Below are positions 1 to 14,201 of a stretch of DNA of 64,000 bases, piece by piece; the stretch's first letter is position 1; each line of letters starts with the position of its first letter. The notes beneath the pieces were generated by a model that made no database searches, was not told where the DNA came from, and saw only the letters and a program-made list of their open reading frames with translations. Origin of the DNA: Opitutales bacterium (GTDB lineage Bacteria > Verrucomicrobiota > Verrucomicrobiia > Opitutales > JABSRG01); the NCBI GenBank assembly GCA_049599475.1, contig JBMYOQ010000013.1, positions 1 to 64,000 on the forward strand, given 5' to 3'. Position numbers and translations under genes: made by a program.

Positions 1-66
1 CCGTAGACAAAACCATATAACCATAAAGCTCAATAATTATTCGAACTGGTATAAGTCCAAACTTTT

Positions 67-100
67 GTAGGGCACGCGTGGACGGGCGAACCGTGCCTAT
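67..100 (+). repeat. GTAG-type REP-like palindrome
   Basis: gtagggcacg...cgtgcctat imperfect hairpin starting with GTAG, just past the stop of 117..2546. Confidence 0.5.
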
Positions 101-116
101 GGAGATGCAGCCCAAC

Positions 117-2546
117 TTAATACAAAGCGTCTCGAAGACCTTCGGGCAGAGTCTCTTTTAGAGTATCCCAAAACACAGTCGGCTCGGGATAACTAAGGTC
201 GCCCGTTGAGATGCCCTGCATCGATGGACGCTTCGTCGACAAAACCGGTAGCCAAGATCGCTCACTCTTTAAGTCCGCAGCGAGCGGAACGAAGGTCGAA
301 GTTTCAGAATCCAAGACTAAGTAAAGGGATCGCGCTTCGTCGATATCGACACCCTCGACGGAGGTCAGGCCATTGGGTCCGATTGTCCCCACAAATGCGA
401 GAGGCAAGCTTTCAAACTGAGCAAGGAGGGCAGACGTGGCTTTTTGGGAATCTACCCACTCGTAGCTCGGGGCTGATCCCAATAGGCTATCCAGGTTCTG
501 CTGATTTCGTTTTTCCTCCAACCAACTGAGGTGATTGAGGACGATGCCAGACTGCGCCAGCAGCGACTTCGCCTGCTTCAGCTCCGGTATCCAGGAAATC
601 TCGAAGAACTCCTGACCGGAGCCCAAAACGTCGACGGTCCACTGGAGCATAAAAGCCCGGAAGGCCGGAGAGAGTCTCGCATCGTAGATTGCCGTCTGAA
701 TCAGTGGCAATGGATTCTGTTTAAATGCCCCATAATCGGCATCCCAAAGATCGGCGAGCTGTTTGGCCACCCGTGATTCGAGCGTGAGAATACCATCATC
801 ATAGACGATCCCACGGTAACGCCCCAGACCATCTTTGTTGGCAGTGGATTTTATCGATGAGGCCCCAGTCTGATCGACCAGAGTTAACTCTTGGGACACC
901 AGATACAACTCCCTCAACTCATCCAAGAGGGTCTCTTCAGACTCAACAGGCCCTTGAGTGTAGACCAGTGAGCTACTCTGCGCACCCGCATAATTATACC
1001 TAAAATACTGCCAAACATCGATGAAGCTATCATCTGTAAGCAGCTGAGTAATTTGCGTTGCTACTTCTCGAGCGTAGGAGAAATCCTCAAGTTTTAGCGA
1101 AGCGGACCTCTCAATCCACATGCGAGCCTCAGTGTCCGAAGGTGTCCACGCTTCTGGGACCAATCGTTCCCGCCAAAAAGGGAGGCTGCGCTCAGCACGC
1201 GCGAGATCAGGGAGCTGGATACCGGAAGAATTTAATCCCGCGAGACGCTCGATGCCTGATTGGACAGACTCATATGAATTAGGGTTACTCACCGAGGCCA
1301 AGGCGGCTGACATCTCATCTAAAAGAGATTGTATTACATCGCCGCGATCCACGATCGCTTCGATACGGGCTTCCGCCCCCGCCTCGACATCCACCCCGTC
1401 AAGGGCCACGGCTTTCCAGGCATCGTATTTCTCACCAAGCCCCTGGGCTCGAGGAAGCCAAGTCCGCAGGCCATCCAAGTTCATATCTCCCACGATCGCT
1501 TCCTCTAGGTCCTCAAGTAAATTGAGCAGAGGTTCAAATTCAGCTTCTTGCTTCGCTATCTTTTCTTCCTTCGAAGCTCGGGACCAGGCAATTGCTTCTT
1601 CTAATTGATCCAAGAGTGGCCCTTGGGCTTGGAGCGGTAAAGATACAATTTCCGAGCGAATATTCACCGACTCTAACGCCACGTCCAGTGAACCATTGGT
1701 GTCTTTGAAAATCTTCGCTTCAAATTTCGAAATCAACTGCTGCACCTCGGCATACTCCCGAGAAAGCGCTGAGCGTGCTTCTCTAACACTCTCCAACCGA
1801 GCTTGAAGATCGGGATAAATCTCAACAGGTAGGAATGAATCGGGCCCCTGGAATTGAGCTTCCATGGTGCCTTGCTCGATCTGATTAGCGAACAAATCGA
1901 TTGCTTCAACAAATTGGCTACGCACGGTCAGGTAGAGGCTACCTACCCCTAGAGATACAATCGCAAGTGAACTCAGAGCAATCACTCTAACGCGCTTTTT
2001 CCGACTTGTCCGCATCCGCGACACCATGGCCTGATGCTCGCGTTCGGCAGATCTACGCGTATCGGCATCACCCAGAGCTTTAGCCCATTGATCGAAAAGG
2101 AGCCCCAGCTCGTCCTCCTGCCGAGCATTGTAGGAAAAACGCTCAATCAATCGCCTACAGCGCTGGCTCAGCTCGGAGTCTCCAGAACGAATGGCGAAGC
2201 GATAAGCAGTCAGTACTGGCCCGTCGTCTCGCAACTCCGTATTCGCCAGTCGTGCGACCCACTCATTCGAAATACCTAAGGGCTGATCCTCTGTTTCCCC
2301 CAAGATGGGGTCCACATCTGGAGCGATCCCCGCTATCTCCAAAATCTGCGGGTGATCCACGACTTTCTCGAGAGCCATGACCACACGGCCCTCTTGCAAA
2401 TCGCCGACGATTGCGTGCAAGGGTTCCACGATACCCGCGCGCGCACGATTCCAAGCGCTAGCCTGAACGGACCAGTCAATATCCTCGAGAGGTCCCCCAA
2501 GCTCAGCAATCCATGACTTGAGCGTATTCTCCGTAAAATCCGACAT
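117..2546 (-). CDS. Membrane-anchored helical/coiled-coil protein, last gene of the GTPase module
   Basis: About 809 aa ORF; single TM (VRVIALSSLAIVSLGVGSLYLTV) after basic RKKR; ATG at 2546 overlaps the upstream stop (TGATG); GTG at 2549 is an alternative start. Confidence 0.8.
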   Translation of the reverse strand: MSDFTENTLKSWIAELGGPLEDIDWSVQASAWNRARAGIVEPLHAIVGDLQEGRVVMALEKVVDHPQILEIAGIAPDVDPILGETEDQPLGISNEWVARLANTELRDDGPVLTAYRFAIRSGDSELSQRCRRLIERFSYNARQEDELGLLFDQWAKALGDADTRRSAEREHQAMVSRMRTSRKKRVRVIALSSLAIVSLGVGSLYLTVRSQFVEAIDLFANQIEQGTMEAQFQGPDSFLPVEIYPDLQARLESVREARSALSREYAEVQQLISKFEAKIFKDTNGSLDVALESVNIRSEIVSLPLQAQGPLLDQLEEAIAWSRASKEEKIAKQEAEFEPLLNLLEDLEEAIVGDMNLDGLRTWLPRAQGLGEKYDAWKAVALDGVDVEAGAEARIEAIVDRGDVIQSLLDEMSAALASVSNPNSYESVQSGIERLAGLNSSGIQLPDLARAERSLPFWRERLVPEAWTPSDTEARMWIERSASLKLEDFSYAREVATQITQLLTDDSFIDVWQYFRYNYAGAQSSSLVYTQGPVESEETLLDELRELYLVSQELTLVDQTGASSIKSTANKDGLGRYRGIVYDDGILTLESRVAKQLADLWDADYGAFKQNPLPLIQTAIYDARLSPAFRAFMLQWTVDVLGSGQEFFEISWIPELKQAKSLLAQSGIVLNHLSWLEEKRNQQNLDSLLGSAPSYEWVDSQKATSALLAQFESLPLAFVGTIGPNGLTSVEGVDIDEARSLYLVLDSETSTFVPLAADLKSERSWLPVLSTKRPSMQGISTGDLSYPEPTVFWDTLKETLPEGLRDALY

Positions 2547-3367
2547 CACGAGACGACAAACAGCTTACCGCCCGAGACCATGCTTTTAAGGAGCGATGAT
2601 CGTGCTTTCAGGCTGAATTTGGAACTCAAATGCTCACGTTGCACGTGCAGGCGATCCGCATGGACATCGACAAACGAACCCGACAGACCACCAATCCAAT
2701 GTAGAGGCATATCAATATCGCAATCCTGCAAGAATGTCGTGAATGCAATTTCCCACGACATCGGTGGCGGCACGAGTGCTGAGGACTCAGCGTAGGCTTT
2801 CAAAATGAGCTGCGTATCCGTCTTATCCGTAATCAAGAACATCGGTTTATCCGATACACTCGAATGCTCCAACCATGCCGCTGCACTTTCCGGAGACTGT
2901 GTCATGGCCTCCCAATGCTTTGCGGGTAAAAGTGGCTGCATCCGCTTCAATTCCGTGAGAATACGGTTTGCCGGAAAGGGCTCGATCCACGATGGCTGAG
3001 CCTTGAATCGCTCACGCCACCCCGTCCAAAAAAGAAGTATGACCGCCGGGCTCAGGGTAAATCCAGCGCTGTTTCCATCAAAGACTAAGTGATGCGCAAT
3101 GTGGTTTGCTCGATGACTATAGTCAGCACCCGCAAAACCAATTTTCGTGATCACAAACAGCTCACGACCTTTGTGTATGATCGAATGAAAACGATGGACC
3201 CATGGGCGCGTGCCCGTCCAATTCTCATAGCGACTGCGTACCTCTAGCAGCTGCACCACCTCTTCGGGGAGTTCCTTGGAACGCGCCACCGTGCAGAAAC
3301 CAGAAGCCCCTTGTTCCAAGCCAGAAGGAGCTGAAGTAAATATTAGCTGGTATACTTGCCCGTTCAT
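2546..3367 (-). CDS. GAP1-N2/GAP1-M domain protein (GTPase-associated protein 1)
   Basis: QLIFTSAPSGL..G.SGFCTVARS and GADYSHRANHIAHHLV match GAP1-N2; VPPPMSWEIAFTTF resembles GAP1-M; ATGA overlap with the GTPase gene. Confidence 0.8.
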   Translation of the reverse strand: MNGQVYQLIFTSAPSGLEQGASGFCTVARSKELPEEVVQLLEVRSRYENWTGTRPWVHRFHSIIHKGRELFVITKIGFAGADYSHRANHIAHHLVFDGNSAGFTLSPAVILLFWTGWRERFKAQPSWIEPFPANRILTELKRMQPLLPAKHWEAMTQSPESAAAWLEHSSVSDKPMFLITDKTDTQLILKAYAESSALVPPPMSWEIAFTTFLQDCDIDMPLHWIGGLSGSFVDVHADRLHVQREHLSSKFSLKARSSLLKSMVSGGKLFVVS

Positions 3368-4635
3368 GGATGCGCTCCTCCTTCCTTCTGAGTACTCGGC
3401 ACTAGATTCCCTTCACATTTGGACAGGGCCCAGAGAAAAGGAATATCGACAAATTTCGGCCGAATACGCCGTGGATCTGGAGCCAAATAGCCTTCCATGG
3501 GACCTTCGGTAATCAGCTCTGGAGAATGACCAATCGCGCTCGCAGCAAAATACATAACATTGCTCGAAAGTGCCTCGGCGTTGGCGACAATGCCGGATGC
3601 GTATTCTAGCAAGAGTTCTCGAAGGATTTCAGAATTATGCCGGATCGCTGGTTCGGAAATAGCACCATCGACGATGGGCTCCTTGAATTGGCTCCAATCA
3701 ATCAAACGACCCCAAATATCTGCCTTACCTATGATGATCGCCAATGGGGTCTCGACTCGATTAAACGCAGAGATGTTGCGCAGTCGCTTGATACGTGCCT
3801 CCATTTCAGACAGGAGAATATCCTGTTGATCCCTCACACCTTGCTGGCGCAGCTGAGGATCTTGGACATACGACAGTGCCTTACGAAATCCTGGATTCGA
3901 GGCAGGATTGAATAGGAATAGCAGAACAGATGAATGAGCGACGTGCAGCGCTCCGGGCGATGCCTCGATATCGATATTTGGCTGAAAATGCTCACCGGCA
4001 TTGTCATAAAAAATCAGCGACGCGTTGTGATCGGCAGACTCTTTGCCGGACAAGGTATAAACGAAGGGCTTCGGCAAGGCAACGGAGCGCCCTCGACGCA
4101 CGGCCTGGTCGTACATTTTACCTTCAAAGGTCGTTTTGTCTAGAATTGCTTCTTCTCGGGTCGCGGCTGAGAAGATCTGGTTCTTCATCTCGTTGAGCAA
4201 TACATTACCCGCGGGATCTTCATCCCTGAATGTAACACCGAAATCCTTATACAAGGTCGACTGAAGCTCGTTAATCAAGACACTGAGGTAATAAGACTTA
4301 CCCGCACCCGGGGCTCCGATGACCGAAAAAATATGATGCGGCGTATCGCAGTATCCTCCCGGTAATTTACGTCGACAATGCGGACAGGCAATGTCGTAGC
4401 TGAGCTCACCTTGAGGATCTATGGCGATACCGTCTTCATTGAAATTACTTGCCCAAAAGCGAGGTGCATGTCCGGGGCCAAGAACAGGATCTCCCTCCTT
4501 TCCCATATTTGCCTCGATATTCATCACAGACCCGAGACCAAACTTCTCCCAACAAGCAGGGCAAAAGAAGGGCTGCGGCTCAGCAAACCACTGCTGATCC
4601 TCAATAAACGGTTCAAACTCGGAGGCTTCAGGCAT
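3364..4635 (-). CDS. TRAFAC-class GTPase with N-terminal Zn ribbon (conflict-system type)
   Basis: CPAC...CPHC; G1 GAPGAGKS, G3 DNAGE, G4 GKAD, G5 SAIG. Confidence 0.85.
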   Translation of the reverse strand: MPEASEFEPFIEDQQWFAEPQPFFCPACWEKFGLGSVMNIEANMGKEGDPVLGPGHAPRFWASNFNEDGIAIDPQGELSYDIACPHCRRKLPGGYCDTPHHIFSVIGAPGAGKSYYLSVLINELQSTLYKDFGVTFRDEDPAGNVLLNEMKNQIFSAATREEAILDKTTFEGKMYDQAVRRGRSVALPKPFVYTLSGKESADHNASLIFYDNAGEHFQPNIDIEASPGALHVAHSSVLLFLFNPASNPGFRKALSYVQDPQLRQQGVRDQQDILLSEMEARIKRLRNISAFNRVETPLAIIIGKADIWGRLIDWSQFKEPIVDGAISEPAIRHNSEILRELLLEYASGIVANAEALSSNVMYFAASAIGHSPELITEGPMEGYLAPDPRRIRPKFVDIPFLWALSKCEGNLVPSTQKEGGAHP

Positions 4636-4637
4636 GT

Positions 4638-6023
4638 CTAGCGATTCAAGCGTTGGGCTACCTTATCCAAGTTTCCAGAGACAATCGCGATCTTATCCAT
4701 CTGCTCACGCAACTCCGCAGCCATCAACTCTCGGTCGTTATTTCGATCGGCGATCTCGCTCTCCAGAGCTTCTACTCTTTGCTTACGCTCGCGAAGAGTC
4801 TCTCGTAATTCATCGACTTTGGTCGTCAAGCGTGTCTCAGAATCCGTGCGCTCCTCGTGAGCTTTCTTCTCAAGGCTGAGATCCGACTGGAGAGATTTTA
4901 CAGTCTTCTTCAATTGCTCGACTTCGCCCTCGAGCTCTTCGATGCGTGTTTCCTGCTGCTTCCGCGTCATTTGAGACGCCTTCAAATTATCCGATTTCTC
5001 GTGAGCGGTTTTCTCTGAAGTCGCTAAATTTTCACGAAGCTCATCACTATTTTTCTCGAGTGAATAGATCTTCTGCTGAAGTGATTCTACTTCTGCCTGG
5101 TGCGTATCCTTCATACGTCCCATCTCCTGCTCAAACTCTCTGCGCGCACGAGCCTCTCGGCGCTGGCTGTCTTCGAGCTGCCGCTGCAATTGCTCAACTT
5201 CTGCCTGCAAATCTTGCTTCTCAAGCGTGGCATTTGTCGTGGCGCTGGCAACGGACTTCAACTTATCACGCTCAGACCTCAAACGGCTATTCTCAGTCTC
5301 AAGCTTCTCAACCCGCTCAAGCCATTTCTGATTATCCACAGCAGTTTCGCCGGAATCTTCTTCAGTAAATTTTGAGGATATCTTTGGGAGCAAATCGGAG
5401 AGCGGAATCCAGTCGTCGGAATCATCGTCCCAGCCCCAGTCAGCCATCGAAAATGTGCCCTGCTCGATCCGTGCTTTGAGGTGCTTCAGCGAGTAGAAGA
5501 TGTGCTGCTTTTCGTCCTTGAATACGTTGATCTCGTTCACGGTAGTATCTTCCTCGATGGAGGCTTGAGCTTTAAAATTCGTTGAGTCTTGGGTTTTCTC
5601 TGGTGTCGCCTCAGGCGATTCTTCAGCCGGCGGCTCCGGTGTCTCAGCGGTCAACACACGCGGGGCTTCAAGCGTCTCCGAAGAGAGGTGTCGCCACGAT
5701 GTCGATTTCGCATCCCAAGCCCACATTCCGGCTGCGAACTCTCCCGCAGCTTGCGCTTTTTCAAATGCTTCTGCCGACCAAAGGCGGGATTTCTCCGGGC
5801 TCTTTGTGTCCACGACATAGATGCCCGGTAAAAGTTGAGTGGCCTGTTTCCCGGTAGACTGCTCATGCTGTGCAGCTTCCTCTACAGTCAAAGGTCTCGG
5901 CAAAGATTCCCCAGGTGCCCAAAACAAGTTGGCATCTTGCGCCCAAGCAAGCGATTGCTCCTGCTTCGAGTCGATTGCTGGGGTAGGAAATTGCATTTTC
6001 CAGAATCCAATGCCCGTAAGCAC
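4638..6023 (-). CDS. GYF_2 (DUF4339)-like domain protein with long C-terminal coiled coil
   Basis: Two GYF_2-like segments (WSAEAFEKAQAAGEF...WAWDAKSTSWRHL; YSLKHLKARIEQGTF...WGWDDDSDDWIPL) followed by an E/K/Q/L-rich coiled coil; start at GTG 6023 or ATG 5996. Confidence 0.75.
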   Translation of the reverse strand: MLTGIGFWKMQFPTPAIDSKQEQSLAWAQDANLFWAPGESLPRPLTVEEAAQHEQSTGKQATQLLPGIYVVDTKSPEKSRLWSAEAFEKAQAAGEFAAGMWAWDAKSTSWRHLSSETLEAPRVLTAETPEPPAEESPEATPEKTQDSTNFKAQASIEEDTTVNEINVFKDEKQHIFYSLKHLKARIEQGTFSMADWGWDDDSDDWIPLSDLLPKISSKFTEEDSGETAVDNQKWLERVEKLETENSRLRSERDKLKSVASATTNATLEKQDLQAEVEQLQRQLEDSQRREARARREFEQEMGRMKDTHQAEVESLQQKIYSLEKNSDELRENLATSEKTAHEKSDNLKASQMTRKQQETRIEELEGEVEQLKKTVKSLQSDLSLEKKAHEERTDSETRLTTKVDELRETLRERKQRVEALESEIADRNNDRELMAAELREQMDKIAIVSGNLDKVAQRLNR

Positions 6024-6057
6024 CTAAGACTCAAGGACAAACCGAAGATGAGACCAC

Positions 6058-6091
6058 AAAAAAGCCGGAACGCTGGGGGGAGCGTTCCGGC
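6058..6091 (-). terminator. Intrinsic terminator directly upstream of the GYF gene
   Basis: Perfect 11-bp GC-rich stem, 6-nt loop, followed by TTTTTT. Confidence 0.85.
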
Positions 6092-6157
6092 AAATCGCAT
6101 GTTGGGTGTAACATGCAAGATGGCCGGGGTAGGCACATCGTGGGGTAACAACGATGT
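6058..6157 (-). ncRNA. Putative small RNA or structured leader with four C-rich-loop hairpins
   Basis: Stems ACAUCGU/ACGAUGU, GCC/GGC, GCAUGUU/AACAUGC and GCCGGAACGCU/AGCGUUCCGGC with loops UGUUACCCC, UACCCC, ACACCC, CCCCCC; ends in U6. Confidence 0.6.
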
Positions 6158-6158
6158 A

Positions 6159-6187
6159 ACAATCGGTCAAAAACCCCATTTTCGCAA
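6159..6187 (-). promoter_or_regulatory. Putative sigma70 promoter for the C-rich RNA
   Basis: TTGCGA-N17-GATTGT; a similar TTGATT...GATTGT arrangement precedes the gene at 32523. Confidence 0.45.
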
Positions 6188-6405
6188 GTGATTAATAGAG
6201 ATTATCAGTTCTACTTAAGCAAAATCAGCTCCATTAATAGCTATCGATTATCAACTATTAGCACCCGCCAACATATTGGTGTATAGTCATTTAGGAAAAT
6301 CCGTTTTTGCCATTAGGACGAAATTTTCTTCCCATGCACCTCTCTGATAAACCTACGCTTTTACAGAGTTTTATGGTTTTTTACAAATTTGTAAAAAAAT
6401 CTGAT

Positions 6406-7644
6406 TTACTCGTGCCTAAGCGCTTCGATGGGATTCAAGATAGCCGCTCTAATTGCGGGATAGATCCCCGATAGCACCCCGATTGCGCTGCTGAAGGCAA
6501 AGCCCAACATCATAGCATTCCATGGGACCGATTCAATGACGTCTCCTCCCGGAATCATGGTCTTAAACACTTGGATCACCGCCAGGCTGATCAACATGCC
6601 AAAAACGCATCCGAGTATACTGATGACAATCGATTCCGCTATAAACTGGATGAAGACGTCGCTACCCTGGGCACCAATCGCCTTGCGCACACCGATCTCG
6701 CGAATGCGCTCATTCACCGAGGCCAACATAACGTTCATAATTCCGATTCCTCCCACCACCAGTGAGATTGCAGCAATGCCTCCTAGGGAAAATTTGAAAT
6801 TGCGCTCGAGCTTGTTGAGTTCGGCCAGCTGATCTTCGCCTGTTTCGACCTCAAAATCTAAAATTCCGTTATGCGCGATTCGCATGGTGTTTTCGACGGA
6901 GGTCGTCACTTGGGTCAGCTCCTGGGGATCTCTGATCTTCAGAAGAATACGATTTATACTATTCTCCTCCCCTCGATGCTCCAAAGCTGTGCTCACTGGG
7001 ATCAGGGCGACCCGAAACTTCCAAAAGAGCGCATTGCGCCTCTGACCCGGATTCCCCAAATACTCTTCAGCGAGAACACCGATTACCCGATAAGAAGCCC
7101 CATTGAGCCTCACTTGTTTCCCTGTCGGAGATTCTCCTGGAAACAATTGGTTCGCCGCGTAGGGCCCCAAGACAATGACACGCTCCTTGCGCAAAACGTC
7201 CATCTCACTGATGAATCGGCCTGACTGCATCTCATAATTGAGAATAACCTGATAGTCCGGCTCTACTCCATGAACCGGCTGGGAATAGCTATTATCCTCA
7301 AATGAAATGCGCTCCCAACCTTCATCAAACCGAGTCGATGCATGGCTGACACCTTCTACCGAGGATCGGATCGCATCTATATCGTAAATGGTCATTCCGG
7401 GAGACAAGTAGGCGATTTCCTCCTGTCTTTCAGGAACTGAGTTGCGGCTGATTTCGATTTTCTCGATGCCACCCAGACTCTCGAAAGCTCCACGCGTGGA
7501 CCCAATCATCCCTTCGATAACACCCACCATTGATACCAATGCGGCGACACCGAGTACAATCCCACTTATCGAGAGCATGGTACGCACTTTATGCGCCCAA
7601 ATTTCACGAATGCTATTTATAATACCTGTCCACAGAGCACTCAT
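6406..7644 (-). CDS. ABC transporter permease, MacB/FtsX family
   Basis: GGIGIMNVMLASVNERIREIGVRKAIGA and C-terminal PIEALRHE. Confidence 0.95.
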   Translation of the reverse strand: MSALWTGIINSIREIWAHKVRTMLSISGIVLGVAALVSMVGVIEGMIGSTRGAFESLGGIEKIEISRNSVPERQEEIAYLSPGMTIYDIDAIRSSVEGVSHASTRFDEGWERISFEDNSYSQPVHGVEPDYQVILNYEMQSGRFISEMDVLRKERVIVLGPYAANQLFPGESPTGKQVRLNGASYRVIGVLAEEYLGNPGQRRNALFWKFRVALIPVSTALEHRGEENSINRILLKIRDPQELTQVTTSVENTMRIAHNGILDFEVETGEDQLAELNKLERNFKFSLGGIAAISLVVGGIGIMNVMLASVNERIREIGVRKAIGAQGSDVFIQFIAESIVISILGCVFGMLISLAVIQVFKTMIPGGDVIESVPWNAMMLGFAFSSAIGVLSGIYPAIRAAILNPIEALRHE

Positions 7645-8372
7645 GCCACCGGAGCCGAGCCTCCCACCTCTTCACGGTTTCCAGATTTGGGCTCCTGTCG
7701 ATAATCCTCCAAGATCAAGCCATCCTTCATCCGTATGACTCGATCACAGAAACTCGCCACGTGTGGATCGTGGGTGACGATAGCGAGCGTGTTGCCCTCC
7801 CGCTTTAGTTCACCAAACAGATCCATGATTTTATCCACGTTTTTGGAATCAAGATTCCCCGTGGGTTCATCTCCTAAAATCAGGCGCGGTTCATTAATTA
7901 ATGAGCGTGCAATCGCCACCCGCTGACGTTCCCCTCCGGATAGCTCGAGCGGCGTGTGCTGTTTGCGATGCCCCATTCCTACTCGCTCCAAAACCTCCTC
8001 CGCACGCACCCGGCGGTTCGGATCCCGTCGGCGCGCGTAGTGAGTAGGCAGCAGTATGTTCTCGAAGACTGATAGACGGGGGAGCAGATTGAAGGATTGG
8101 AAAACAAAACCAATCTTGCGGGAGCGCAGTGTGGCTCGGTCCTTCTTGGAAAGATGCGTCACATCCTCGCCTTCGAACAGGATTTCACCCTCGGTTGGAC
8201 GATCCATAAAGCCGAGGACGTGCATCAAAGTCGATTTGCCTGATCCAGAAGATCCAGTAATCGCGACAAGTTCTCCCTCCGTGATGGTGACATCGACCCC
8301 ATCAAGCGCGTTCACGACCTCGTTCCCGACCTTATAGCGCTTCCTCAGCGCCCGTGTCTCAATGACTTTCAT
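7641..8372 (-). CDS. ABC transporter ATP-binding protein (LolD/MacB-like)
   Basis: GSSGSGKS, LSGGERQRVAIAR, DEPTGNLD. Confidence 0.97.
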   Translation of the reverse strand: MKVIETRALRKRYKVGNEVVNALDGVDVTITEGELVAITGSSGSGKSTLMHVLGFMDRPTEGEILFEGEDVTHLSKKDRATLRSRKIGFVFQSFNLLPRLSVFENILLPTHYARRRDPNRRVRAEEVLERVGMGHRKQHTPLELSGGERQRVAIARSLINEPRLILGDEPTGNLDSKNVDKIMDLFGELKREGNTLAIVTHDPHVASFCDRVIRMKDGLILEDYRQEPKSGNREEVGGSAPVA

Positions 8373-8394
8373 CCAATAAAAAAGCTAACCGGCT

Positions 8395-9540
8395 TCAGGA
8401 TTCAGCAGTTGTTTCGCTACCGAGTTCTTTATTCGAGCCAGCGCTACCTTCGAGCAAAAGCGCTTCGTCCGGACGGTTGCGCGCGATTTCAAGACCTTCG
8501 TCGATACCATCCAAAATTTGAATGTATTTGTGATCCCGAATCCCCAGCTGCACGGACTGCCGACTGAATCCCGTATCTTCCTTTCGATAGACGAAGGGGC
8601 GATCGTTATCATCGAAAAACACGGATGAGATCCCCACCGCAATCGCATCCTCAGCACGGTCGACCAAAATTTCAATGTCTCCGCTAATCCCTGGACGGAC
8701 CAAACGACCAGCCGTCTCCAGCTCAAAACGCACGGGGAAGACTCGGCGGTTACGCTCCGTTCGCGCAGACGCTGCGATCTGGCTCACACGAGCAGTGAGT
8801 TTGTCTCCGCCGAGGGAATCGAAAGAGATCGAGGCCTCCTTGCCGATATAGAGCTCGTTCACTTCGAGTTCGCTCACCGTTGCTTCCAAATACATGCGCG
8901 AGAGGTCCGCTACATTCATCAAGAGCGTTCCATTGCTATTGGAGTTTACCCCATTGATCACGCGACCTTCTGTAAGGTCGAAATCGATCACGATACCGTC
9001 ATGAGGAGCGCGCACAGTGGCCCGATCCAAATCTTTTTGCGCCTCAATCAGGCGCGTTTCGCGAATAGATAACTGTAGCTGAGCGAGTTCAAAATCCGTC
9101 TTCGCATTCAGATAGTCTGCCTCATTGGCATAGTTTTCAGCATGCAGGGCTTTGAGCCGCTCGTAGTCCCGCTCCTCTCGCTCGAGACGCAACCTTTCGG
9201 ACTCAAGCTGCCTCTGAGCCTCCTCGAGGCGAGTCTGTAAATTGGTGCGATCGAGTTCTATCAAGGGCTGGTCCTTCACCACGCGATCACCCTCTGCTAC
9301 AAGAAGCTTCACGATGCGCCCATTGATTTCCGATCTCACCTCTGTCTCCAAGATAGGGCGCACCGAGGCACTTGTGACAATCGTCTCCTCGATATCGGCA
9401 ACAACAGATTTGGTTATCCGGACTTCTTCTATTTGTTTCTGCAGTTCAGCTGCAGTATCGGGTGAGACCGCTTGATAGGCCAGATAGCCTAGGCCGCTAC
9501 AGGCAGCGATAAAGAGAGTTAAAAATATTACAGTTTTCAT
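8395..9540 (-). CDS. Efflux periplasmic adaptor (MacA-like)
   Basis: N-terminal TM, lipoyl half-motifs (EVRSEINGRI; VRAPHDG), alpha-hairpin. Confidence 0.92.
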   Translation of the reverse strand: MKTVIFLTLFIAACSGLGYLAYQAVSPDTAAELQKQIEEVRITKSVVADIEETIVTSASVRPILETEVRSEINGRIVKLLVAEGDRVVKDQPLIELDRTNLQTRLEEAQRQLESERLRLEREERDYERLKALHAENYANEADYLNAKTDFELAQLQLSIRETRLIEAQKDLDRATVRAPHDGIVIDFDLTEGRVINGVNSNSNGTLLMNVADLSRMYLEATVSELEVNELYIGKEASISFDSLGGDKLTARVSQIAASARTERNRRVFPVRFELETAGRLVRPGISGDIEILVDRAEDAIAVGISSVFFDDNDRPFVYRKEDTGFSRQSVQLGIRDHKYIQILDGIDEGLEIARNRPDEALLLEGSAGSNKELGSETTAES

Positions 9541-9552
9541 ATGTGGTGATTC

Positions 9553-11067
9553 TTAAAGCCGTGATGTTTCGGAAGGCTGTCCATCTAAGGGCCCGTCCTC
9601 TTCAGTCTTCTCAACAAGAGAGACCCGGGGCGCAGTGTCCCAAGAGATGTTAAATCGTTGGAAAAGCTCGTGGTCCAAGCGGGCTCGCAAGGTGTCCTGT
9701 CGGAGGACGCGCTGCAGTGTCGACACACGCTGCAGTCGGGCGTCATCCAAGGAACGCTGCGCCTGTAAGACATTTCTAAAGGTTTCGACCCCTGCTCGGT
9801 AACCCGCACGCTCCCGCTCAAATAATTTCTCCTGAAGTGCCACTTGTTTTTCAGAAATTTCCAGCTGAGCCAGGGACGCCTTAAGATCGCGGATCACCTG
9901 ACGCGCAAGCACGCGCTTGTTATACTCGGCGCGCTCGAGCCGAGTGGTTTCTTTACGAAGTTCCAAATTGGCCAAACGCTCATCAGCCTTGTCCTCTCGC
10001 CGTCCCCACGGCATCGAGACAGAGATGCCCGCGCCCCAGGAATAGCCACTTCTCTCGATCGCGGAATCATAAGCCCCAAATGTATCCGATTCCCTACCAA
10101 GAGCCCGGCCATTAAGTGAAAGATCTACCCGGGGCAAAAGGTTGCGCCGCGCCACTGCACGATCGCGCTCCAATATGGCCAATGAGTTTTCGATGATGCG
10201 GAGATCCAGATCATGAGCCATCACCTCTGGGAACCAAATCGCCTCATCAGGCAGCACCGGAGTCGCATCGGGTAATGGAACCACATCGTCCGAGTAATCG
10301 GCCAAGATTTCTAGCCCAAGCAGCACCCACAATTTATCATGAGCGGCTTCAATGCTCAGCTCCGTGTCCAGTAATGCTTGTTGACGTGTGGCCAGCGAAG
10401 CTTGCGCTTGCAACACTTCAAGATCCGTCGCCAAGCCAAGTTCCAAGCGCCGCTCATTCTCACTCAGGAGATTTTCCGCGAGTTCGAGAGAAGACTGAAG
10501 CAGACGGAGCCGCTCCTGCTCGAACGCCAGACTCCAATAAGCGTCCACTGTCTCCTGTATCGTATCCAACACCTGTCCTCGATAGGAGAGCAAAGCCGAC
10601 TCATTGCGCACTCGGGCACGAAACAAGTTGGCCAAATTCACCGTCTTTCCGGCGCCTCCTAAGAGTGGTTGCCGGATATTAAACCCCAAAGTCGCCTGGG
10701 TGTCGTCGCTGAACGAGGAGTAAGCCGCATCTGTAGAAAGAGTGATCTGCGTGCCTAGCCCGGTGCGTTTACTTATGCTAAAATCCCCATCCACCGATTC
10801 TCGTGAGGGGCTGGAATTACCGCTTTGGTCAGTCTGCGAGCCAGGCGATTTCCGCTCATTGTAGCCAAGCGAAGTTCTCAAAGTAGGATCAAAAGAAGCC
10901 TCCGCTCGCTCGATATTCGCCTCTGACTGAGCGTAGTCGAATCGATTCAGACGTACGTCGAAATTGTTCTCCAAAGCTTTCGAGACTGCATCGCCTAATT
11001 CCAAAGACGCTCCATTCACAGTCGAAAGGATCAACACAGAGATTATAAGTGTCAGGTGGTGGTACAT
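9553..11067 (-). CDS. TolC-family outer membrane protein
   Basis: Signal peptide from MYHHLTL; LELGDAVSKALENN; two OEP repeats; first gene of the exporter operon. Confidence 0.9.
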   Translation of the reverse strand: MYHHLTLIISVLILSTVNGASLELGDAVSKALENNFDVRLNRFDYAQSEANIERAEASFDPTLRTSLGYNERKSPGSQTDQSGNSSPSRESVDGDFSISKRTGLGTQITLSTDAAYSSFSDDTQATLGFNIRQPLLGGAGKTVNLANLFRARVRNESALLSYRGQVLDTIQETVDAYWSLAFEQERLRLLQSSLELAENLLSENERRLELGLATDLEVLQAQASLATRQQALLDTELSIEAAHDKLWVLLGLEILADYSDDVVPLPDATPVLPDEAIWFPEVMAHDLDLRIIENSLAILERDRAVARRNLLPRVDLSLNGRALGRESDTFGAYDSAIERSGYSWGAGISVSMPWGRREDKADERLANLELRKETTRLERAEYNKRVLARQVIRDLKASLAQLEISEKQVALQEKLFERERAGYRAGVETFRNVLQAQRSLDDARLQRVSTLQRVLRQDTLRARLDHELFQRFNISWDTAPRVSLVEKTEEDGPLDGQPSETSRL

Positions 11068-11201
11068 TAATATCAGGGGGGGCCACTCAGCAGATGGATA
11101 CGAAAGCGCTGAGTATGGCACTGATTTGAATGAAACAACGCAGCATACCAGATGGTTTCATCGATTCAATTATCCAGGCAGGATAATTTGTTTACGTTGA
11201 A

Positions 11202-13530: not shown

Positions 13531-13776
13531 TTAAGCTGTGACTACGTTCACCTTGCGGTGTGCTTTGTCGAAAGCAACTTTGCCGTCTGTGAGGGCGAAC
13601 AAAGTGTGGTCACGGCCGATGCCGACATTAGCTCCAGGATGGAAGCGTGTGCCGCGCTGGCGAACGATGATGTTTCCAGCAATAACTGCTTGGCCACCAT
13701 ACTTCTTGACGCCGAGCATCTTAGGATTGCTGTCGCGTCCGTTCTTTGAAGTTCCTTGTCCTTTCTTATGTGACAT
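13531..13776 (-). CDS. rpmA: 50S ribosomal protein L27
   Basis: [35 protein letters not shown]. Confidence 0.99.
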
Positions 13777-13795
13777 TGTGAGTCCTCTCTAAATG

Positions 13796-14110
13796 TTAAG
13801 CAGTGATTGAATCGATTTTGATAACCGAGAGTTGCTGACGATGACCGATGTTGCGGCGGTAGCCCTGACGGCGCTTCTTCTTGATAATGGTGACCTTCTT
13901 GTCCTTCTTGTTTTCGAGAACGGTCGCTGTTACAGAAGCTCCTTCCACGAGAGGTGCTCCGATCTTGGAGTCCGCGCCATTGTGGATCATCAATACATCC
14001 GCAAGCTCGACGGTGGATCCGGCTTCCGTTTCAGGGAAGCGCGAAACTTTCAGGATATCACCCTCTGAAACGGTGAATTGTTGGCCTTGCGTTTTGATTG
14101 TCGCTTTCAT
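13796..14110 (-). CDS. rplU: 50S ribosomal protein L21
   Basis: [21 protein letters not shown]; directly upstream of rpmA. Confidence 0.98.
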
Positions 14111-14201
14111 GGGAAAAAGCGTGAAAGAATCCAAATTTAAGAAGCTCTGGCAAGCTATTTATCAAAATTGCTGAGGATTTTAGAATAATTTCTGCGTTTG
14201 G

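Follow-up and report, generated by a model that had tools for sequence, protein, structure and literature searches.

A four-gene GAP1-N2/DO-GTPase operon from an Opitutales bacterium, a candidate motor-less switch at the inner membrane

Gene content of the operon

The window, by which we refer to the whole stretch of 64,000 nucleotides that was analysed, contains near its beginning four confirmed open reading frames on the minus strand (A, 4638–6023; B, 3364–4635; C, 2546–3367; D, 117–2549). The initial annotation had described these genes as tightly coupled, and the coordinates as well as all three junctions bear this out: a 2-nt gap separates A from B (TAG-AC-ATG), B and C overlap by ATGA, and C and D by TGATG. 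For gene A the ATG at 5996 is a more likely start than that at 6023, as both the same-genus orthologue and the database protein P0151 begin there, and for gene D the most likely start is the ATG at 2546 (P0004). The features of this region are as follows.

4638..5996, minus strand: gene A, 452 aa, two divergent GYF-like repeats, a variable linker and a coiled coil
3364..4635, minus strand: gene B, 423 aa, zinc-ribbon DO-GTPase (TRAFAC)
2546..3367, minus strand: gene C, 273 aa, GAP1-N2 and GAP1-M only
117..2546, minus strand: gene D, 809 aa, predicted single-pass inner-membrane protein
6064..6091, minus strand: terminator-like hairpin with T run, ~70 nt upstream of the gene A start, a pattern match only
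1..59, no strand: end of a multicopy repeat, outside the operon, where the contig breaks

The hairpin could either terminate transcripts that enter from the ABC-transporter genes upstream or act as an attenuator of the operon; such patterns were found at 10 sites in positions 1–6500, where 6.7 are expected. The repeat at 1..59 is probably an insertion sequence. Further genes of the operon past this contig end, downstream of D, are unlikely, because in one related genome (G001) RNase Y converges on D, and in the genome from which the window comes (G000) RNase Y lies at the end of another contig (C22), with multicopy repeats at both contig ends. The genes around the operon have housekeeping or transport functions.

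Protein B contains two CxxC zinc knuckles, CPAC (25–28) and CPHC (84–87), which represent either one split site or two ribbons, and its motifs G1 to G5 are intact (G1 GAPGAGKS, 107–114; a conserved T168; G3 DNAGE, 211–215; G4 GKAD, 303–306). The DNAGE motif includes the Walker-B glutamate, a pattern shared by 81 of 84 related GTPases. The match to DO-GTPase2 (PF19993) is exactly at the threshold (27.0 bits, cut-off 27), and the predicted structure (pLDDT 81) has the fold of small TRAFAC GTPases, with matches to a YcjX-type GTPase (PDB 6nz4; Z 12.1 over 238 residues, 15% identity) and to MglA (Z 11.9, within 1 of a RagA-like GTPase and YcjX). The description of B as a Zn-ribbon TRAFAC GTPase with recognisable G1 and G3–G5 motifs is thus upheld by motifs, profile and fold. 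B is without the N-terminal FHA/GYF extension that most of its relatives carry. No match to the GTPase was found in plasmid, phage and viral collections, a weak result, as these probably contain few elements from the PVC bacteria.

For protein C, which had been annotated as a GAP1-N2/M protein, the GAP1-N2 domain is clearly present (PF20013, E 6e-18), but GAP1-M was detected only below the cut-off (E 0.0028), with 44 aa left between this match and the C-terminus. No GAP1-C match, membrane helix or periplasmic extension was found in C. A DENN-like fold for GAP1 received no sequence-level support in the PDB, and no supporting paper was found.

Protein D has one hydrophobic segment (~187–207), preceded by seven K/R within 17 residues and followed by one. 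This is consistent with the large membrane-anchored protein proposed earlier, and D is predicted to be a single-pass inner-membrane protein with a cytoplasmic helical domain of ~185 aa and a periplasmic part of ~600 aa. It gave no match in Pfam, NCBIfam or PADLOC, its model in the ESM Atlas is of low quality (pLDDT 0.48) and gave no usable match, and a PDB sequence search returned helical look-alikes only. D belongs to an unnamed protein family, of which 1795 representatives were found at E<=0.001 and 303 at 1e-30, and which supplies the constant third gene of such operons; within this family it is a shortened form, in which ~170 aa of the cytoplasmic region of its relatives are missing.

Protein A, in which no membrane segment was found, consists of GYF-like repeats at ~aa 50–105 and 155–205 followed by a coiled coil of ~230 aa. 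The coiled coil of the proposed GYF-coiled-coil protein was confirmed; the GYF part holds in a divergent form, as the GYF_2 profile does not match the whole protein and gives E 0.034 on the isolated repeat 2. In profile comparisons with the GYF domains of related loci, repeat 2 scored 24.9 and repeat 1 scored 19.3 (shuffled maxima 12.1 and 11.3, respectively), and the best ESM Atlas matches were GYF_2 clusters at 0.80, which we use as a lead only. Based upon these results, the presence in A of a divergent tandem GYF pair, with the first repeat weaker, is supported. Only six proteins in 5.8 billion match aa 1–215, and the gene is restricted to the window's family, where it co-occurs exactly with gene B (3/61 relatives). 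The idea that A arose by fission from the FHA-GYF extension found in related GTPases was rejected, since the probability of profile similarity is under 1%; A therefore looks like a separate recruit. Its coiled-coil matches to SMC, JetC, LmuB and ZorA are non-specific and, where given, far below cut-offs. Within the operon, conservation is highest in repeat 2 (90% identity to the same-genus orthologue vs 80% for the GTPase), because of which the earlier suggestion that the GYF repeats sense an invader is doubtful.

Related loci and their distribution

The order of the four genes is identical in G003 and, split over two contigs, in G001, in agreement with the expectation that they are conserved together; the locus at which they reside in G000 and G001 differs from that in G003. 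In the Verrucomicrobiota the constant core of the system consists of the GTPase, GAP1 and D, with GAP1 and D following the GTPase in 66 of the 76 loci with at least 7 kb of downstream sequence. In G010 and G050 the GTPase lies apart from GAP1 and D, with all three still present. Downstream of the core lie genes for a MotA/ExbB motor and its two ExbD-like subunits in 18 loci, or a PilM-like cluster (8/76), or neither of these. All 18 motor loci encode a membrane-anchored GAP1 of 608–964 aa, whereas no locus with a short membrane-less GAP1 has a motor. The PilM-linked loci (families f75 and f102), in which a PilM-like gene and two single-pass genes follow the core, possess the same short GAP1 as the window. 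The motor subfamily was not found in G000 (96.6% complete), where only generic ExbB/TolQ paralogues were detected. Judged from these sequences, the form in the window is a derived, motor-less one, which combines a GTPase without FHA/GYF and a GAP1 without anchor with an extra GYF-GYF-coiled-coil gene. Among the intact verrucomicrobial versions in this analysis it is the smallest and, as both its GTPase and its GAP1 are soluble, it offers a convenient pair for biochemistry.

The system is present in 56 of 401 genomes of the phylum, 13 of 61 relatives, three of seven genomes of the window's own family and 77 of 101 genomes of one genus, and in view of this patchy distribution it is dispensable. 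One cultured species with a homologue is Prosthecobacter fusiformis (EI77_01138, P0158). In a quick tree of the GTPase, 21 family changes were counted (minimum 18, shuffled mean 38), which favours a tree following taxonomy and a largely vertical inheritance. In family f3 the GTPase occurs in all 36 genomes, two of which have a motor. All 20 f3 loci that were fetched contain GTPase-GAP1-D beside a divergent ECF sigma gene, at the same locus and with no variable effector gene; this ECF link is absent in the window. The dN/dS values for the four closest f3 pairs were 0.04–0.08 for the GTPase, 0.05–0.18 for periplasmic D and 0.03–0.12 for the ECF control, values which pertain to the f3 genes rather than those of the window and which, as pairwise means, miss site-level selection.

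Relationship to known systems

GAP1/DO-GTPase systems are widespread and are assumed to be immune systems. As the initial annotation had stated, they appear to lack experimental characterization: in the literature searched we found no experimental study of GAP1-N2/DO-GTPase systems, and also no paper joining a planctomycete GYF, GTPase and TolQ/ExbD gene cluster. Their action against invading elements is a prediction only in the text of Kaur (2020; PMC7159879). By its sequence the operon is a member of these GAP1-N2 DO-GTPase systems, with the GAP1-N2 protein encoded downstream of the GTPase, and the GAP1-GTPase core that had been recognized earlier holds in this respect. The GTPases of these systems have a conserved Walker-B glutamate and N-terminal zinc ribbons, usually two (Kaur 2020; PMC7159879), and B agrees with them in its DNAGE motif and its two CxxC knuckles. 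The absence of a vWA gene, regarded earlier as an unusual trait, does not distinguish the operon, as the text of Kaur (2020; PMC7159879) does not count vWA as a core part of GTPase-centric systems.

Several differences from the systems in that text were observed. The GAP1-N2 systems, whose occurrence in verrucomicrobia is mentioned there, have FNIII as a third component (Kaur 2020; PMC7159879), whereas the operon is without an FNIII protein, GAP1-C or a variable effector. No fn3 match was obtained in the four proteins or in 39 related proteins, the fn3 matches of the own genome being on other contigs; the C-terminal part of D could hold a very divergent FNIII fold. The paired-GYF gene mentioned for planctomycete versions is fused to trypsin or a membrane-rich region (Kaur 2020; PMC7159879), but in the operon a coiled coil is joined to the two GYF repeats. 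The main text of that paper does not mention partner D, the MotA/ExbB motor or a link to PilM; its Figure 1 source data may list these neighbourhoods. Lastly, inheritance of the operon looks vertical, in contrast to the mobile systems described there: the tree is taxonomic and GC3 of the operon equals the window mean, yet the distribution is patchy and three f3 genomes (G541, G548 and G551) have a mobile- and foreign-looking copy, with a separate GTPase clade and trypsin fused to D.

A bacterial GYF domain that binds a host proline-rich sequence is described in the text of Attia et al. (2024; PMC11135422) for a GTPase-controlled envelope motor. This Myxococcus Agl-Glt system (GltJ ZnR-GYF, MglA, AglZ; PMC11135422) resembles the operon in that a small GTPase, a zinc ribbon, a GYF adaptor and a long coiled-coil protein are linked to a protein of the inner membrane. 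It differs in that the GTPase there is MglA, whereas the DO-GTPase of the operon has its own zinc ribbon and the operon has no motor; a TolQ/TolR-type motor of this kind was not found in G000, and no MglB or Glt homologues were seen in the fetched loci. We regard the likeness as an analogy, not membership. The TolQ-like subunit and two TolR/ExbD-like subunits of the motor-bearing relatives are presumably comparable to AglRQS. The YcjX-type GTPase, which we take to be the product of the DO-GTPase gene in pspFABC operons, differs from B in its low identity and its other partners, and no psp genes are present here. That gene, for which the preprint does not use the name YcjX, has been predicted to act in membrane stress (10.1101/2020.09.24.301986).

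Possible functions of the operon

We consider the operon to be a form of the verrucomicrobial GAP1-N2/DO-GTPase systems that lacks the motor and is inherited mostly vertically. It would act as a GTP-gated inner-membrane switch that reports on the condition of the cell envelope, and not as a defence system that releases an effector; we assign this reading a probability of about 0.5. D would span the inner membrane as the sole anchor of the complex, and its conserved cytoplasmic helical domain would be the putative docking site of the soluble GTPase-GAP1 pair, with the nucleotide state set by GAP1. Protein A may take the place of the GYF adaptors that have disappeared from both the GTPase and the membrane; it would bind a constant partner of the host that is rich in proline, and its coiled coil could serve in oligomerisation or localisation of the complex. 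The core found in relatives would govern a motor of the MotA/ExbB type or a platform resembling PilM; the window's lineage would have lost the motor while retaining switch and scaffold. The earlier proposal of a membrane output with no enzymatic effector fits these observations, no effector domain being found in the four proteins.

In a bolder and more tentative extension, GTPase-GAP1-D would be a plug-in switch of the Verrucomicrobiota for interchangeable envelope machines, a PVC counterpart of MglA-GltJ-AglZ serving trans-envelope adhesion or polarity, and thus part of core cell biology, not immunity. The machines would be the MotA/ExbB motor with two ExbD-like subunits, the PilM-like platform and the GYF-coiled-coil scaffold. 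The identification of D as an unannotated third core protein, together with the swapping of output modules, gives a direct test of defence versus envelope function.

The main competitor, to which we attach a clearly smaller but still substantial likelihood, is an anti-phage or conflict system (Kaur 2020), in which periplasmic D would sense infection, the GTPase-GAP1 pair would fire and A would form a containing or toxic polymer. Besides the family membership, DO-GTPase systems with non-enzymatic, multimer-forming effectors are predicted in the text of Kaur (2020; PMC7159879). Several observations favour defence or stand against a switch. The distribution is patchy, the loci in G000/G001 and G003 differ, the window lacks the ECF link, and D changes fast (46% identity within the genus, 39% in the stalk). 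Variable GYF fusions (trypsin, PrsW, RDD, DUF4190) and vWA or FGS genes occur in motor-bearing relatives, and the mobile-looking copies carry trypsin or FGS domains; in G541 an FGS-type gene like Kaur's effectors lies upstream of the extra trypsin-D copy. As a control, Cas1 was detected in 28 of the 36 f3 genomes, and therefore high prevalence alone does not exclude defence. However, in PADLOC proteins B, C and D were without a match and A matched coiled coils only, a variable effector is present only in the motor-bearing relatives (the same four genes occurring in 3/3 f1 genomes), and there is no defence-island context at the operon in these three genomes. The envelope switch is favoured over defence because the GTPase tree is taxonomic, the f3 genomes all carry the GTPase, with a fixed locus in the 20 fetched, and dN/dS is low. 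The defence reading of the initial annotation is thus weakened but not refuted: housekeeping-like conservation is seen in some lineages, such as f3, but not across the phylum.

It is rather unlikely that the operon is an MglA-like regulator of polarity or pili, in which the switch would mark a pole or site and activate the platform of the type IV pilus, and A would be a scaffold comparable to AglZ. The PilM-like gene right after the core in f75 and f102, next to a window-type GAP1, is consistent with this, as are a PilM-like membrane protein on another contig (C8) of the own genome and the presence of MglA among the best fold matches of B. However, the PilM-linked GTPases belong to a different major branch of the tree, no pilus genes lie near the operon in the window, and the fold match of B is common to many small GTPases.

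Least probable of all is a decaying motor-operon remnant with little present function, since, although the motor, the FHA/GYF extension, the GAP1 membrane part, the GYF-membrane gene and part of cytoplasmic D are gone and four of the seven family genomes are without the system, all four reading frames remain intact, with their coupling, in three genomes, the catalytic motifs are preserved, the new gene A has been gained, and A, B and C are conserved within the genus (74, 80 and 84% identity, respectively) like five neighbouring genes (70–85%).

Organization and family assignment of the operon

The window is the first part of contig C13, from a genome of 4.68 Mb (96.6% complete), and the four minus-strand genes with coupled junctions described in the initial annotation were confirmed in their places, each as the only copy in this genome:

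4638..5996, minus strand, gene A, GYF-like pair and coiled coil
3364..4635, minus strand, gene B, zinc-ribbon DO-GTPase
2546..3367, minus strand, gene C, GAP1-N2 and GAP1-M
117..2546, minus strand, gene D, predicted single-pass inner-membrane protein

In Pfam searches, C matched GAP1-N2 (E 6e-18) and, weakly, GAP1-M; B matched DO-GTPase2 with a score exactly at the cut-off; A gave coiled-coil matches only; and no Pfam match was found for D, which is a member of a large unnamed protein family. For the GTPase, the nearest named match, a gene from a 'Verrucomicrobiota bacterium' assembly, is 80% identical. A structure model of B (pLDDT 81) matches TRAFAC GTPases, the best row being an Asgard RagA-like GTPase (Z 12.7, rmsd 3.1, 173 aligned), with YcjX (Z 12.1, rmsd 4.4, 238 aligned) and MglA (Z 11.9, rmsd 4.3, 186 aligned) tied with it within 1 Z unit. 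When compared with a GYF profile built on 37 domains from related loci, both repeats of A outscored every one of 40 column shuffles.

The four-gene operon is real and, as first proposed, belongs to the known predicted family of GTPase-centric systems, defined in passages of Kaur 2020 (PMC7159879) by a DO-GTPase and GAP1. These passages list verrucomicrobia among the lineages with such systems, give an FNIII protein as the third part of the GAP1-N2 type, and describe planctomycete versions with FGS domains or with a paired-GYF gene fused either to trypsin or to a membrane-rich region. They also confine vWA to some actinobacterial and firmicute themes, and the lack of vWA was therefore wrongly taken as a reason for calling the operon unusual. 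MotA, TolQ, ExbB, ExbD, and PilM are absent from the main text of that paper, and among the papers listed by a literature search for the family names, none is experimental on a GAP1/DO-GTPase system as judged from the listing and passages.

Related loci and the derived layout

The GTPase is present in 13 of 61 relatives and in 56 of 401 genomes of the phylum, the genome under study being counted in both. Among 84 loci tallied from wide regions, which are not independent since 20 come from one family, 76 reach at least 7 kb downstream of the GTPase; GAP1 is found there in 71 (one more lies just under the detection threshold), D in 68, and both in 66. A MotA/TolQ/ExbB gene follows in 18 loci (PF01618 E 1e-6 to 1e-12 in the six scanned) and, where the locus is long enough, is succeeded by two single-pass proteins that share a conserved aspartate in the membrane; these gave no match in a Pfam scan and are read as ExbD/TolR-like by motif. 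The profile of this motor matches 27 of 401 genomes at E<=1.2e-96, a cut set after the fact at a score gap with a profile built from 10 of the 27. The GTPase is present in 25 of these 27; the motor is missing from 30 of 55 GTPase genomes and, among same-order relatives, is found in 2 of 12. The motor trio also occurs in two genomes without the GTPase (L111 and L117, in G414 and G112). A PilM-like gene replaces the motor in eight loci of families f75 and f102 (L068-L071, L073, L078, L090, L092), where the GTPase, a short GAP1 and D lead directly into a PilM-like membrane protein followed by two single-pass proteins. In L062, L065, L094, L162, L093, L160, L161, and L137, D is unseen after GAP1, or GAP1 or D is split in two frames; this apparent erosion could represent assembly errors.

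Most related GTPases carry an N-terminal extension of 70–350 aa (FHA, GYF or zinc ribbon where named by Pfam), which is missing in only 3 of 84 loci; the GTPase of the window is without it. A membrane helix together with a periplasmic extension is found in most related GAP1 proteins, whereas C lacks both; D, its cytoplasmic region reduced by about 170 aa, still has the conserved YRxAxR motif. The operon is without the usual GYF-membrane gene, and no motor was found by profile search of the 96.6% complete genome; gene A stands in place of both. Gene A occurs in exactly 3 of 61 genomes, viz. the family members that also carry B, and its N-terminal half has six database matches. Because the GTPases of this family form one clade (support 100) among same-order relatives, the layout is a derived one.

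In each of the 18 motor loci GAP1 is long and membrane-anchored, and a short soluble GAP1 is seen only in motor-less loci; hence the extension may be a motor-coupling arm, dispensable after motor loss. Several motor-less lineages retain a long GAP1, so the link is one-way only.

Envelope role or defence

We consider that the operon functions as an envelope switch, with a probability of about 0.5. What the analysis establishes directly is gene order, domains, motifs, co-occurrence and inheritance. From the positive-inside rule we infer the topology of D, on whose cytoplasmic domain the GTPase and GAP1 would dock. Gene A would combine the roles of adaptor and scaffold, in analogy to the GYF of GltJ, which binds the proline-rich part of AglZ according to passages of Attia et al. 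2024 (PMC11135422), and the operon would relay envelope state.

A defence system, the label originally suggested, is possible but less likely than an envelope role. In its favour are patchiness (entire families lack the GTPase system, as do 24 of the 101 genomes in one genus), a Cas1 control that reaches 28 of 36 genomes in family f3, fast divergence of D (46% identity within the genus), motor-bearing relatives in which GYF fusions vary and trypsin, FGS or vWA genes occur, and three f3 genomes that carry a GTPase from a separate clade, in different surroundings. However, the GTPase tree tracks families (it needs 21 changes, against a minimum of 18 and 38.1 after shuffling), and the GTPase is present in 36 of 36 f3 genomes. 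GTPase-GAP1-D stands beside a divergent ECF sigma gene in every one of the 20 f3 loci fetched (chosen among the best-scoring of the 36), an adjacency that recurs in f30 and f36; a GYF-two-helix gene immediately follows D in 18 of the 20. Two f5 genomes retain all three genes despite a split operon. For the 4 closest pairs out of 190, dN/dS is 0.04–0.18 for the GTPase and D and 0.11–0.47 for the periplasmic part of GAP1; more distant pairs, which are near-saturated, give higher values of up to 0.65. We regard a pilus or polarity regulator as improbable, and a decaying relic as more so.

In G010 and G050 (L025/L107, L026/L108), the GTPase lies apart from GAP1 and D and has lost its zinc-binding cysteines, with G1-G4 kept. 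The separate-clade copy in f3 genomes G541 and G548 (L151, L152) is motor-bearing and has trypsin fused to D in a protein of 1849 aa, with an FGS-type gene on the upstream side and a vWA-like gene on the downstream side; the f3 GTPase matches listed include no resident-type copy from these genomes. In G551 (L153), a second GTPase copy, at which GAP1 was not detected, is directly followed by a 1567-aa trypsin-D protein.

Surroundings of the operon

Positions 1–59 are the end of a repeat common to more than 20 contig ends of this genome, and contig C22 is closed just after RNase Y by another, different repeat end; one multicopy insertion sequence between rny and gene D probably explains both. 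Since RNase Y faces D across the repeat by synteny with the related genome G001, D is most likely the last gene of the operon. Other features are:

6406-11121, four same-strand genes, MacB/ABC/membrane-fusion/TolC exporter-like as read from sequence alone
13531-14134, rplU-rpmA, about 8 kb upstream of the operon
C69:18869-19390, C86:13804-14985, C12:72147-73872, C16:2094-2909, five further GYF proteins of this genome

The exporter-like genes hold the same position in G001 and are unlinked in G003. Tandem repeats are present in two of the five GYF proteins and membrane helices in four, and they are possible partners in trans. In 3 of the 20 f3 loci, rplU is likewise a neighbour of the ECF pair, which may be chance.
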